This document shows, piece by piece, positions 6,001 to 9,000 of a DNA stretch of 20,807 nt. Numbering within the stretch: position 1 is the stretch's first letter; every line of letters begins with the position of its first letter. A program made the position numbers. Source of the stretch: a bacterium (GTDB lineage: Bacteria > Zhuqueibacterota > Zhuqueibacteria > Zhuqueibacterales > Zhuqueibacteraceae). The stretch is from positions 1 through 20,807 of the forward strand of contig JBIOXB010000082.1 in NCBI GenBank assembly GCA_044869275.1. The letters run 5' to 3'.

Positions 6001-9000
6001 TGCTTGATTCCACCAAGATTCTTTCAGAATGACATATAATGGCCCAAAGCAGAATCAGCAGCCGATCAACCCTCAAACCTTCCACATGATATTCATGTCG
6101 ATCCTCGGCTCGACGTGGCGATATTTTTCCACCAGCGCGATTTTGCGCTGCAGCAGCTCGCCCAGATTCTCGCCGTAAATAAAACTTGTCTCGCCGGTTT
6201 TGGAGACCACCATGAAATCCACCGGGCTGGTATTCCATAATTCGAGCAAGTCTTTGGTGTTTTGCAGATCGCGCGCCATCATCTCGTCGAGATACTTGCG
6301 CCAGTTTTTCTTTTGGGTTTGATCTTTGGCCCCAAGATAGCCGTGCACGCCCGCAACCCATGCCGACAGGCTGCGCAAAGTGCCGGCCCAGCAACGCAAA
6401 CCGCGCAATCGTTCGTACTGATCCACGAACACGCGCCGCGCCTGTTCGGAAATTTGCTGATGGTGTGCTTGGGTCTTTGCCAATTGCAGTACGCTTTCCA
6501 GTCGTGGCCAAACATTTTCATCCACGCGCTGCACGAATTTTTCACCCGACTCTGGCGTGACCAGGTCAAAGAGCACGTCTTTGCCCAAATCAACCAAATT
6601 TGTGTTGTTGGTCGTGCTCACCATGAACTGTTCGTAATAGCGCCGCTCTGCGTCCGGAATCGCCAGCAAGTCGGGAATGATGGGGCGCACCCAAAGCCGC
6701 AGCCACACGAAGCCAAAATTGGAGAAAAGCGGCAGAATGGGGAGATGCTGAATCGCGTCATCGGTTTGCCGCCAAATCGCAACGAGCTGTTCCGCGGCTG
6801 CCTCGCCTACCCATTGCGTGGCCTTGCGCTGCAACACTGCTTCCAACTCGGCATTCGGCTCGAGCATGAACGCGCGGAAAACTTCTTGATTAATGTGATA
6901 GGGCGCAAGGCGGGAGGGCGTGAAACCGCCGAGATTGGCGGCGTATTCCACGCCGCTTTTTTTCATCTCCTGCAACTTCTGCCAGATCATCCACGGATAG
7001 GGCAGGCCGAGCAACGGCTCGAAATTGTAGCCGTTGCCATGCGAGTAAATGAGATGGGAAGCGATGCCGCGCTGGTGATGCGCGTCGATGAGCTGCCGCT
7101 CTTGCGGATCCATTTTCAGATGATGCACACTGCCGGCAATGCCCATGACATCCGGATACTTGTCGTGATGGTAGGGTAAATCATAGCCGCGCACCAGCAG
7201 CGAAGGCACTTCGAGATCGAGACGATCTTCCAAATGCGCCAGAATCACGTCGTGCTCCACCTTGAAAGGCTCAAGGCGCAGGGAGACGCGAAAATCCGGA
7301 TTGAGCTCGGCCGCGGCCTCGCGCAGAATTTTCATATACCGCACCACGTTCTTGCCCGCGACTTCCGCGATTTGTTCGTGCGTGCGCCATTCGCGAATCA
7401 GATACGGGCCGCCGTTTCTGCCCACGTACAGCGAGCTGGTGTATTCGAAGCCGGAGCCGCTGTCATTGCTCCAAATGCTGAGATAGGCAAGATCGGGAAC
7501 CTCGCGCAACAGTTTCTGCATCATCTCGCGATAATGCGCCTGCGCCAGCGGATGCGCGATGGTCATGGTGAAGCGCGGCCGGCGGCTGCGAAAGGGATGG
7601 TCCACGCGCGCGCCGCGCAGTGTGGGATATTTGTGAAAAAATTTCTCCGGTACCGAGCGCGGCTCGAAACACAACAGGCCCGGCTGCAGGCCATATTTCC
7701 GGCCCAACGCGGCGTAGCGTTTCAACAAATTCAGGTTTGCGGTGAGATATTCGATGGGATAAATGCCCTTGTTCAATTCGCTGTGCACGAATTGATCCAA
7801 CGCCGGACAATAAGAATAAAATTGCGAATAATACTCGCCCTCGACCGGATCTTCGAACGGCACAGGCAGGGCCAGGCCGTTCACTTCCACATGCGTGTAT
7901 CCGGCGCGCGCCAATTCGCGAATGTGCTCTTCGGCATTGAAGTTCCGCGCGGTGCGCCAGGTTTGTGTCAACAGATAATCAAACAGCGGGCGATGCCAGC
8001 GCAGCGCCGCCGTATGGTATTTGCCTTTCTCGAATTCCTGCAGCGGGGATGATGCCCAATCCTCCAACAGATGCGTGGTATACGCAAACAAAAGCGCGGG
8101 ATGTGAAACGAGCAATTCTCCCGTGCCGTTCGGCGCCACGCGCACGTAGGCCCAGTGTTTGTTGGATGGCGCCGCGGCTCTGATCTTGTCGAGGTCGAAA
8201 GAAGCATTCTGTGCAACAGCAACGCGAAGAGCCTCTTGTGCGTTTTTCGCTTCGCCGCGCGCAACACCGGCTTGCGGGCAAGTTTTCTGTAATTCTGAGG
8301 CGCAAGTCTCTTCGACTGGAAAAGTGTTCTCAGGGAGCAAGATCAATTTGGTCTTCTGGAGAGCATCGCGGAGGTTCATGAGAGGAATCCTGGTATTGGT
8401 TGAAAGTTCAGGCCAGTCGCGTTTCGACTTATCGTCGAATGTTTTTTGCCGCTTCGCAGCAGCTTTGATTTGCAACTTGCCCGCAAATCCGGATCGTCTA
8501 TGAAAGTGAGGTCTCTGCCCCATCGGCAAACATTTTCAAACCGTGAATCGGCATAATTTTCCGCCAGTATTCTTCAATCACATTGATTCGTGCTTATTCG
8601 CGGTTGCCCGCTTGTTTGGTTGCAGCTCGGCGCGTTAAGCGCTTAGTCAGTTACAAGTGCACTCTCTGTAAAAAAAAGCAAAAACTTTCTCCCACGGAAA
8701 TGGAACTGCCACGAAAAAAGCTTTTCATTTCCGTGGAAGTTCCTCTTTTGTGGGCGATAAGTTCTTTTTGATTCCGGCTCGTCCGGGTCATGGTTGTTGC
8801 TCTCCGTATGGCTTCACCAGGGCAAAATAGAAATCATGAGAAACCGAATACAGGACTGCCTCCATTCCATAGAAACGAGCATGCTTCTCGAAAATCATAC
8901 CAAGCTTTCTCATCACGTGAATCGAAACAGAATTGTCAGGGTGAGCGAAGGCAACTACTCGCTGGATGTTGAGCTTGGAGAAAGCCGCCTGCAACCAGGC

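Follow-up and report, generated by a model that had tools for sequence, protein, structure and literature searches.

The window, that is the whole stretch of 20,807 nucleotides analysed here, carries on its minus strand an open frame of 768 amino acids (P0001; 6076-8379, stop codon 6073-6075). The frame is intact and close relatives are similar in length, in line with the preliminary description of this DNA. A longer start at an upstream TTG would give 818 amino acids and was rejected; the alignment with close relatives, 764-771 amino acids long, starts at residue 1. A signal-like N-terminus was seen in 8 of 278 relatives when a crude hydropathy test was applied, and the members of the family are probably cytoplasmic. 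P0001 is the product of a real gene and part of a large bacterial protein family that has no name. Table 1 collects the features of the gene, of its product and of the locus.

Table 1. Features of the P0001 locus and candidate residues of the protein
Feature	Position	Strand	Basis or conservation
Gene of glycosidase-like protein P0001	6073..8379	-	Open frame, lengths of relatives, no signal peptide by crude hydropathy test
N-terminal alpha/beta domain, residues 1-125, GH20b/GH67N-like	8005..8379	-	AlphaFold2 model and VIA; absent from the short clade of ~620 aa
(beta/alpha)8 barrel, residues about 126-511	6847..8004	-	AlphaFold2 model and VIA
C-terminal helical bundle, residues 512-768	6076..6846	-	AlphaFold2 model and VIA
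Asn167, end of beta-2, possible counterpart of GH185 Gln174	7879..7881	-	279/284; from spacing only (PMC10570127)
Glu239, end of beta-3, candidate second carboxylate	7663..7665	-	271/284
R255-G-A-R258-V-D260 motif in the beta-3 insertion	7600..7617	-	R255, R258 and D260 invariant in 284/284, a set chosen by this motif
Asp306, three residues past strand beta-4, proposed general acid(/base)	7462..7464	-	Invariant in 284/284 long relatives
Glu312, beta-4 loop, candidate second carboxylate	7444..7446	-	206/206 in two long clades; in 78 distant members Asp or Cys for the most part
Glu375, start of helix 5, candidate second carboxylate or helix cap	7255..7257	-	120/126 rows
PhyH-family Fe/2-oxoglutarate dioxygenase, next gene downstream	4910..5836	-	PF05721, E 2.4e-14
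L-rhamnose isomerase RhaA	3413..4681	-	Domain search
M20 (ArgE/DapE-type) deacylase, recurrent neighbour	2054..3199	+	In 20/126 loci
Divergent block: MFS transporter, GH88, SDR, old-yellow-enzyme oxidoreductase	10462..15808	+	Domain search
PfkB kinase, NAD-dependent epimerase-family protein, DHDPS-like aldolase	16873..20645	-	Domain search

Extent of the family and its gene neighbourhood

P0001 matched no Pfam and no NCBIfam family at E<=1. A 46-row family profile found no PDB sequence below E 6.7, and a 26-row profile of the distant members nothing below E 0.09, the best match being helical-bundle noise. The lack of sequence matches in these three databases, reported before, is reproduced, for the PDB with deeper profiles. 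After clustering at 90%, the relatives come to at least 1,785 proteins, and the family occurs in 74 of the 167 genomes of the host phylum. None of the 59 proteins returned by the distant-member profile has a Pfam domain; GH20b and GH67N domains are annotated on neighbouring Atlas clusters, and 2 of 42 relatives match GH20b weakly. All named records of relatives that we examined read 'hypothetical protein', and a literature search that covered subscription journals thinly found no description of the family.

The PhyH and rhamnose isomerase genes lie next to the P0001 gene on the same strand, as had been noted. In relatives a gene for a 693-aa SDR-domain protein and a rhamnulokinase gene lie between these two; both are missing in the window. 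The locus continues into contig C74 (50-base overlap), where genes for a TonB transporter and for heparinase-II/III-like proteins follow in the gene order of genome G150. In relatives L039, L040, L185-L187 and L189 the family gene has the kinase, epimerase and aldolase set directly upstream. The kinase and aldolase had been read as KDG enzymes, an identity that is not supported because both score below every curated cut-off; they are just PfkB- and DHDPS-family proteins. The family gene had also been said to lie always on the strand of the CAZyme and URO-D genes. This holds for URO-D-like genes in all 33 loci that have one, but for GH88 in 6 of 15, and in the window GH88 lies on the opposite strand.

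We compared 126 loci, which like their genomes are related and partly duplicated; at 60% identity 36 remain. Of the 126, 61 contain GH88, GH38 or one of three glycosidase/lyase-like orphans, and 41 a class-V aminotransferase-family or M20 deacylase gene. Amidohydrolase, creatininase-like and nitrilase-family genes belong to the same kit, and kinases and a nucleotidyltransferase are common neighbours. One orphan of 530 amino acids models as an (alpha/alpha)6 protein, nearest to alpha-L-rhamnosidases (TM 0.68, E 4.7e-15). Of 68 genomes that carry the long form of the P0001 family 56 have this orphan, versus 7 of 99 without that form, and no such link was seen for GH67 (12/56 versus 18/69) or GH115 (22/56 versus 21/69). 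The family is co-inherited with this rhamnosidase-fold orphan in a large lyase/rhamnose catabolic locus. Rhamnose catabolism, GH88, the heparinase-II/III-like genes and the co-inherited orphan support an acidic, rhamnose-containing glycan, as had been suggested from context; which residue is cleaved is a proposal only.

Fold and kinship of P0001

The AlphaFold2 model built on the 126-row alignment has a pLDDT of 96.6 and a pTM of 0.95. It upholds the three-domain architecture seen earlier in a model with a pLDDT of 73, and the worry over low-confidence barrel loops (161 residues with pLDDT below 50) is gone, because no residue of the new model falls under 50. In VIA comparison with 48,161 chains Cwp19 again comes first (Z 19.6-20.0), a match to the barrel only. 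Full-length matches were obtained to GH20C (5a6k, Z 16.9, 505 residues aligned, rmsd 6.4), GH89 (4xwh, Z 16.0, 550 aligned, rmsd 4.9), GH67 (1mqr, Z 15.9, 520 aligned, rmsd 5.8) and GH138 (6hzg, Z 15.8, 589 aligned, rmsd 5.3), the last three recovering what the first model had given. Going by entry titles, we take the best 50 of these 48,161 chains all to be glycoside hydrolases or homologues of such enzymes. Neither VIA list shows GH115 among its best 50 matches, an absence that does not argue against it. The best Foldseek match is the GH20 enzyme GcnA (E 3.9e-14). GH20, GH67, GH138, GH115, GH89 and GH84 match the fold about equally, at 6-12% identity. GH138, named before, aligns the most residues of the full-length matches and holds as a fold match; GH20 matches the fold equally well.

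The preliminary description had placed the closest relatives in GH67 and GH115. Profile comparison instead ranks DUF4838 (PF16126, which holds GH163 and GH185) first, a result of two alignments made independently (E 2.6e-8 over 397 columns and E 6.6e-9 over 285 columns; probability 95-96%), and GH89 second (E 1.5e-5 over 412 columns); a reversed-alignment control against DUF4838 gave E 0.59. In this ranking the GH20, GHL10 and GH84-like sets held 1, 2 and 3 sequences only and are uninformative either way. Named DUF4838 members are the GH185 6-sulfo-beta-GlcNAcase Sp_0475 and the GH163 endo-beta-GlcNAcase BT1035. The match is collinear over the N-domain and barrel and brings D306 onto the Asp that is invariant in the S-Q-N-D motif of DUF4838, after beta-4; a G-x-R in the beta-3 insertion is common to both, and the Sp_0475 family likewise has no signal peptide. 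The P0001 family differs by the extra invariant R255, D260, Y318 and N322, by a long beta-4 loop and by a Glu instead of His near the end of beta-3. The PF16126 gathering cut-off of 26.6 bits was not reached: P0001 gave no match, one of 42 relatives 12.6 bits and two short-clade members, whose frames P0001 also matches, 21.7 and 20.5 bits. The C-x-C-x-x-C cluster described for GH163 (PMC11776370) does not occur after beta-4 in P0001, and Cys at three comparable places occur in 27 of 76 short members but in just 1 of 208 long ones. Weak DUF4838 matches include a group of 13 that was considered as possible GH138 homologues; for the one member searched, the PDB gave nothing below E 0.016.

The cytoplasmic GH185 enzyme has one catalytic carboxylate, D309, that overlays the GH84 acid/base; D309A lowers kcat 7,800-fold, Gln174, His227 and Tyr436 surround the Asp, and Arg633 serves for sulfate (PMC10570127). 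As judged from the alignment, Asp306 would be the equivalent of D309. Further possible counterparts, N167, E239 and Y445, come from spacing or profile only: N167 lies 139 residues before D306 and Q174 135 before D309, and Y445, the best match to the tyrosine of the DUF4838 W-D-Y, is Tyr in 124 of 193 proteins. GH89 (human NAGLU 4xwh, CpGH89 4a4a) shares the three domains, and D306 falls on the Asp of its (A-)D-T-F-N-E. Its catalytic pair E483/E601, fixed by the double mutant 4a4a, is not kept. E312 lies near E483 and may match it, and E601 (T-P-E after beta-8) is replaced by Ser489, variable in all clades.

The GH138 alpha-galacturonidase BP0997 (6hze/6hzf/6hzg) is the longest structural match (578-589 residues aligned, rmsd 5.2-5.3, TM 0.53-0.54). 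P0001 has its N-domain, barrel and helical fold, which is common to five other families. It differs in length (768 versus 856-860 residues), and identity is 7-9% without a match in sequence search. In GH20 and GH84, D306 would stand in register with the acid/base residue. P0001 reads S-I-W-S-N-D there and has neither an adjacent acid pair nor the H-x-G-G-D-E motif that holds the carboxylate pair of GH20 (PMC10570127), the family of GcnA (2epn) and GH20C.

GH67 (1gqi, 1k9d) and GH115 (4c90, 4zmh) share the three-domain fold, and their profile comparisons with the family were not significant (E 0.09, or 0.087 unrounded, and E 0.03). The GH67 alignment, non-significant as it is, runs collinear from the N-domain to beta-4 and sets V-P-D-L-A-Y-L-S-I-W-S-N-D-S-G of P0001 against I-P-D-F-G-G-F-L-V-K-A-N-S-E-G; the acid E292 (1gqi; fixed by the E292A entry 1h41) there becomes Ser307 and the Lys of K-A-[DN]-S-E-G becomes Trp303. 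The GH115 barrel is not alignable by profile; the P0001 sequence after beta-4 shows no motif like the R-G-D-G-D loop, given for GH115 as R328-G-D-G-D332 in PMC3879575. We counted it against a uronidase that the uronidase families are the weakest profile matches and that the GH67 acid position is a Ser.

Conserved residues and candidate active site

Conservation was counted in the 126 rows, in 284 long relatives and in 193 proteins of the main clade. The set of 284 was picked by the R255-G-A-R258-V-D260 motif, which 284 of 286 proteins of at least 570 amino acids carry. The only acids invariant across the whole family are D260 and D306; E239 is lost in 13 of 284. Within the long main clade E239, E312 and E375 are each kept in 193 of 193 and E390 in 192. 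Position 307 holds Ser in 280 of 284. At position 305, 218 of 284 have Asn and none has Asp; long forms carry Asn there, whereas the residue varies among distant members, and a GH85-like Asn/acid pair N305-D306 was therefore rejected for the family as a whole. Three to four arginines are conserved, among R241, R255, R258 and R329. A uronate-specific role of R258 is doubtful: this residue need not bind a carboxylate, because DUF4838 shares it (invariant R229 there). The figure of about 210 invariant columns given earlier was an effect of a shallow alignment, as 126 rows leave 7, and the RNGGG motif reads RNGGP in P0001.

Possible activity and substrate

The fold, the invariant Asp after beta-4 and the genomic context make a glycosidase outside the families tested well supported, and that the family has some glycosidase activity is highly probable. 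This much of the earlier proposal stands, while the kinship it gave was misplaced. By Pfam, NCBIfam, PDB sequence and profile comparison the family is a strong candidate to found a new family of glycoside hydrolases. Our reading, plausible but short of probable, is a cytoplasmic exo-glycosidase of the fold group GH20/67/84/89/115/138/163/185 that would release uronic acid from oligosaccharides of an acidic, rhamnose-containing glycan. Outer lyases and glycosidases would cut this heteroglycan, TonB-dependent and SSF or MFS transporters would import the oligosaccharides, and P0001 would take off a single terminal residue, alternating with GH88 and the co-inherited rhamnosidase-fold protein. Asp306 would protonate the glycosidic oxygen and a second conserved carboxylate (Glu239, Glu312 or Glu375) might act as base or nucleophile, and an anionic sugar, in the likeliest case a uronic acid linked to rhamnose, may be bound by R241, R255, R258 and R329. 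The data suggest hydrolase activity, the role of Asp306 and the type of glycan; which sugar is released and which residue is the second catalytic one are guesses.

The GH20 fold match together with the DUF4838 kinship opens a reading absent from the preliminary description, which we hold to be possible though somewhat unlikely: a retaining, substrate-assisted exo-N-acyl-hexosaminidase like GH185 or GH163, with D306 as acid/base and Asn167 and Glu239 in the places of Gln174 and His227. The substrate would be an N-acylated, perhaps anionic amino sugar (amino-uronic or sulfated) that the locus then deacylates and deaminates, in favour of which stand the aminotransferase/M20, amidohydrolase, creatininase-like and nitrilase-family genes. 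The nearest profile with its reversed control, the weak PF16126 scores and GH163-like Cys of short members, GH89 in second place, GcnA as best Foldseek match, the similar Asn/Gln to Asp spacing and the cytoplasmic, single-carboxylate GH185 all point this way. However, the residues are mapped to GH185 by spacing, position 305 is never the polarising Asp, and strands 5-8, which line the acetamido pocket in GH20 and GH84, are poorly conserved, including Y445. That the enzyme acts on glycosides of a neutral or O-methylated sugar such as methyl-rhamnose is improbable in our view. In that case, PhyH (with oxygen) or corrinoid methyltransferases (without) would strip the methyl before rhamnose catabolism. 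PhyH proteins of three unlike lineages (two 27-29% identical, the third a separate cluster) are encoded in 25 of the 126 loci, directly adjacent in 14, MtaB-like proteins in 9 and MetE-like in 12, and none in 60 control loci of GH67, GH115 and DUF4838 genes, but these controls come from one phylum and most PhyH and MtaB loci from others. PhyH and corrinoid genes meet in only 1 of 126 loci, and in the window PhyH lies between the P0001 gene and rhaA. PhyH-family enzymes also hydroxylate or deaminate, and the 530-aa partner is the better fit for a rhamnosidase. URO-D neighbours were rejected as a sign of a methylated substrate, and this earlier claim is weak: such genes are as common in controls (13/60) as in family loci of the same phylum (4/21), and any methyl-type gene is directly adjacent in 6/60 and 4/21, respectively.

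That P0001 is no hydrolase but a glycoside phosphorylase, a lyase or a non-catalytic binding protein, its invariant arginines binding phosphate or another anion, seems very unlikely. The probable cytoplasmic location, the arginines beside one clearly placed invariant acid, and the kinase and nucleotidyltransferase neighbours would suit it, and TIM-barrel phosphorylases exist, such as GH112, which PMC3879575 mentions. Against it, PDB titles name hydrolases for the characterised families that match over all three domains, no GH112 entry is among the matches listed, and Asp306 occupies the GH185 acid/base place. The protein might also belong, as a distant member, to a CAZy family that already exists (GH138, GH163, GH185 or a recent number) missed by the Pfam and PDB searches, so that its chemistry would already be described. 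GH138 was compared by fold and sequence search and GH185 by profile and spacing. We think this unlikely, and it overlaps with the other alternatives: identity to GH138 is low, two family profiles find no PDB sequence though GH138 chains are in the PDB, scores stay below the DUF4838 cut-off, and the records and the thinly covered literature name no such protein.

The candidate alone is not startling, because new glycoside hydrolase families turn up regularly. In a broader picture, which we regard as doubtful, it would be a new family bridging DUF4838 (GH163/GH185) and GH89 with its own single-Asp site, marking an undescribed kit of ~60-100 kb across several phyla with at least 4 more unassigned glycosidase- or lyase-like families. 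This kit would act on an acidic, rhamnose-rich, N-acylated, O-methylated microbial glycan, the methyls being removed by PhyH or corrinoid methyltransferases depending on the host. The family is large, has a testable candidate for a catalytic Asp and marks a conserved locus rich in other unassigned enzymes. Its carriers are mostly uncultured sediment, sludge and freshwater bacteria of abundant lineages. Knowing the activity would name the glycan that these lineages eat, and would also show how this fold group shifts between two-carboxylate and substrate-assisted chemistry.

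Fold and kinship of the family

The ATG of P0001, the 768-aa family protein of the window, is fixed at position 8379, since its close relatives are 764-771 aa long and can be aligned from residue 1. As stated in the preliminary description, P0001 has no match to Pfam or NCBIfam (none at E<=1). A set of 42 diverse relatives gave sub-threshold Pfam matches alone, including GH20b (2), NAGLU (1) and DUF4838 (1), and all named family records examined read 'hypothetical protein'. The family is large: at least 1,785 relatives were found by a word-seeded search with 8,000 candidates scored, and an exhaustive search of 50% clusters gave 495 at E<=0.001. 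It is carried by 74 of the 167 genomes of the window's phylum, a count that takes in G158 and G162, marked unpublished; in a sample of 401 genomes from a second phylum, 17 have it. From the names attached to close homologues, the host is probably a KSB1-type bacterium.

The three-domain architecture described before is borne out by an AlphaFold2 model from 126 rows, with pLDDT 96.6, pTM 0.95 and zero residues below 50. Foldseek places this model close to GH20 GcnA (E 3.9e-14), GH67 (7.5e-14) and GH138 (1.0e-13), with GH115, GH89 and GH84 almost level; the best TM is that of GH138 (0.53-0.54). Full-length VIA matches were GH20C (Z 16.9, 505 aligned, rmsd 6.4), GH89 (Z 16.0, 550, 4.9), GH67 (Z 15.9, 520, 5.8) and GH138 (Z 15.8, 589, 5.3). 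The top-ranked Cwp19 (Z 20.0) covers the barrel alone, and a wider VIA search was consistent. In the ESM Atlas unnamed clusters rank first, followed by clusters with GH20b or GH67N domains in 30-96% of members. Because the structural matches are near-level, P0001 is, as modelled, a member of the GH20/67/84/89/115/138 fold group that the fold assigns to no single family.

Sequence profiles discriminate further. A 46-row family alignment was compared by hhalign with alignments built from available genomes, and DUF4838, which includes GH163 and GH185 according to PMC10570127, was nearest (25 sequences: probability 95.2%, E 2.6e-8, 397 columns; a second set of 5 proteins: 95.9%, E 6.6e-9; reversed-alignment control: E 0.59). 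GH89 followed (9 sequences: 79.7%, E 1.5e-5, 412 columns), then GH115 (19 sequences: E 0.032) and GH67 (15 or 19 sequences: E 0.087-0.095). The GH20, GHL10 and GH84-like sets, of 1-3 sequences each, are too small to inform. These E-values favour DUF4838 and GH89 over GH115 and GH67, and hence the kinship order proposed earlier has to be revised. Features that would mark P0001 as a member of DUF4838, GH20/84, GH67 or GH89 were looked for and are missing, save the Asp after beta-4 that it has in common with DUF4838, and a literature search without most subscription journals yielded no description of the family. We therefore regard it as a credible candidate for a new family inside a known enzyme kind, the GH20/67/84/89/115/138/163/185 fold group, on the features compared for DUF4838, GH20/84, GH67 and GH89.

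Coordinates of the family gene, its modelled domains and recurrent orphan families (L, mapped loci; G000:C156, a contig of the window's genome)
Feature	Position	Strand	Remark
Family gene, open frame of 768 codons	6076-8379	-	window
Alpha/beta domain	residues 1-125		AlphaFold2 model
(Beta/alpha)8 barrel	residues about 126-511		AlphaFold2 model
Helical bundle	residues 512-768		AlphaFold2 model
~530-aa orphan	L104:8325-9905	+	own copy G000:C156:1337-2908
~750-aa orphan	L068:915-3182		signal-like start, faint heparinase II/III N-terminal match
~700-aa orphan	L200:5362-7458		GH15/trehalase-like
~600-aa orphan	L204:359-2173
~840-aa orphan	L215:4096-6612		located after TonB gene
~285-aa orphan	L110:21365-22216

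Candidate catalytic residues

Conservation was assessed in 284 relatives of >=570 aa that carry the R-G-x-R-x-D motif, as 284 of 286 examined do. In this motif-selected set R255, R258, D260, D306 and Y318 are invariant, and N322 (282), N167 (279) and E239 (271) are conserved. D306 lies three residues past beta-4 in the model. In the profile alignments it falls on the Asp of the Q-N-D motif, invariant in DUF4838, and on that of D-T-F-N-E in GH89. For GH185, a single Asp of this region superposes on the GH84 acid/base; without it kcat drops 7,800-fold (PMC10570127). From position, alignment and this precedent we infer that D306 is the likely general acid or acid/base. The GH67 catalytic acid E292 (located via the E292A entry) corresponds to Ser307, GH89 E601 (via the E483Q/E601Q entry) to the variable Ser489, and a GH20-type acid pair is absent from the family sequences. 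A candidate second carboxylate would be available in the 193-member main clade, since E239, E312 and E375 are invariant there and E390 nearly so. Two-carboxylate and substrate-assisted mechanisms would both be compatible with this.

The distant ~620-aa clade (P0175, P0185 and relatives in alignment A5) has no N-domain, and 27 of its 76 members keep three cysteines, compared with 1 of 208 long members. They stand at places like those of the GH163 metal cluster and resemble the Cys cluster that PMC11776370 describes for GH163 and GH185. In thirteen long members (including P0129-P0137, P0053 and P0054) Glu239 is replaced by Ser, Thr, Ala, Asn or His. A crude hydropathy test found signal-like N-termini in just 8 of 278 members; P0130, P0131, P0133 and P0135, all Glu239-less, have such starts. 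This group may be a subfamily that is secreted and differs in its chemistry.

Gene neighbourhood and catabolic kit

We mapped 126 loci (the window and sets of 5, 80 and 40, leaving out the short-flank loci L006-L037), which include duplicates and kin, so that 67 are left at 75% identity and 36 at 60%. Recurrent neighbours were SSF transporters (43), Gfo/Idh/MocA oxidoreductases (41), a 530-aa orphan (33), URO-D-like genes (33), PhyH (25), a 750-aa orphan (25), the class-V aminotransferase family (21), M20 (20), DHDPS-like genes (16), GH88 (15) and glycerate kinase (13). The 530-aa orphan is strongly co-inherited with the family: of 68 genomes that have the long family form, 56 also carry the orphan (54 of 66 once the two unpublished ones are set aside), versus 7 of 99 genomes lacking that form. 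The genomes are related, so that the p-value of this association is overstated; GH67 and GH115 showed no link in the same comparison. The orphan has no match in Pfam or NCBIfam, and its 16-row model (pLDDT 81) is an (alpha/alpha)6 fold nearest to alpha-L-rhamnosidases (TM 0.68 to the fungal enzymes). Five further recurrent families, none above the Pfam cut-off, are listed in the table.

A 50-base overlap at 20758-20807 joins the window to contig C74, and the joint gene order is that of a long contig in genome G150. The rest of the kit lies on contigs C74, C178, C22 and C156 of the window's genome (L283-L286): a TonB transporter, a PorV-like gene, heparinase-II/III-like genes, GH38, DUF2961, three further PhyH genes, a URO-D-like pair with a B12-binding gene, a MetE-like gene, aminotransferases, an amidohydrolase, and creatininase-like and nitrilase-family genes. 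In genomes G059, G221 and G397 the same kit extends across roughly 60-100 kb, and each of them has two paralogues. Rhamnulokinase and a 693-aa SDR-domain gene, found between PhyH and rhaA in L001 and L183, are absent at window 4682-4909; homologues of 46-49% identity lie elsewhere in the genome. The locus is broken up at 8788-10520 and 16012-16797 by genes for a GNAT acetyltransferase, a beta-carbonic anhydrase and a PIN-domain protein (GC is low, 0.42, at 16001-17000). They are not on the L183 map and are probably insertions. Intergenic 8-base tandem repeats stand beside catabolic genes at 17964-18205 and 20684-20796, with units TGGATTAC, CCATCACC and GTTGGATT in 8.6, 13.5 and 14.1 copies, respectively; the last sits at the contig break.

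Substrate and proposed role

The preliminary description had allowed for a methylated substrate and had listed URO-D-like and corrinoid genes among the neighbours. Control loci were 60 neighbourhoods of GH67, GH115 and DUF4838 genes from the window's phylum, and the search models, built from the test loci, recovered 6/6 PhyH and 3/3 URO-D genes detected by Pfam in the own genome. URO-D-like genes occurred in 13 of 60 controls versus 4 of 21 own-phylum family loci, and directly adjacent methyl-type genes in 6 of 60 versus 4 of 21. The idea thus rests on PhyH, MtaB and MetE-like genes, which like both orphans were found in 0 of 60 controls each, but mostly come from phyla outside the control's single phylum. 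Release of a neutral or methylated sugar seems improbable to us. In L065, L066, L069, L071, L102, L116 and L206 an MtaB-like methanol:corrinoid methyltransferase, a corrinoid protein and an MtaA-like gene stand directly upstream of the family gene, and glycerate kinase directly downstream within a sugar catabolic operon. In the 13 controls that have one (control loci L232-L266; 7 of 20 for GH115), the URO-D-like gene is at most about 10 kb away from the GH67, GH115 or DUF4838 gene, which may reflect the handling of 4-O-methyl-glucuronate.

That P0001 is a glycosidase of some kind is very probable, and a non-hydrolytic role very unlikely. The sugar released is perhaps a uronic acid, a tentative assignment to which lyase-like and GH88 genes, the conserved arginines and GH138 as longest structural match all point, although the uronidase families score lowest by profile and R258 also occurs in DUF4838. 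Kinship to DUF4838, GH89 and GH20 and the many deacylase- and aminotransferase-like neighbours would suit an N-acyl amino sugar released by substrate assistance, but strands 5-8 are without a conserved aromatic pocket, and we consider this rather unlikely.

Most likely, P0001 is a cytoplasmic exo-glycosidase acting on oligosaccharides of an acidic, rhamnose-containing glycan. Imported oligosaccharides would be trimmed by P0001 alternately with GH88 and the co-inherited rhamnosidase-fold partner.
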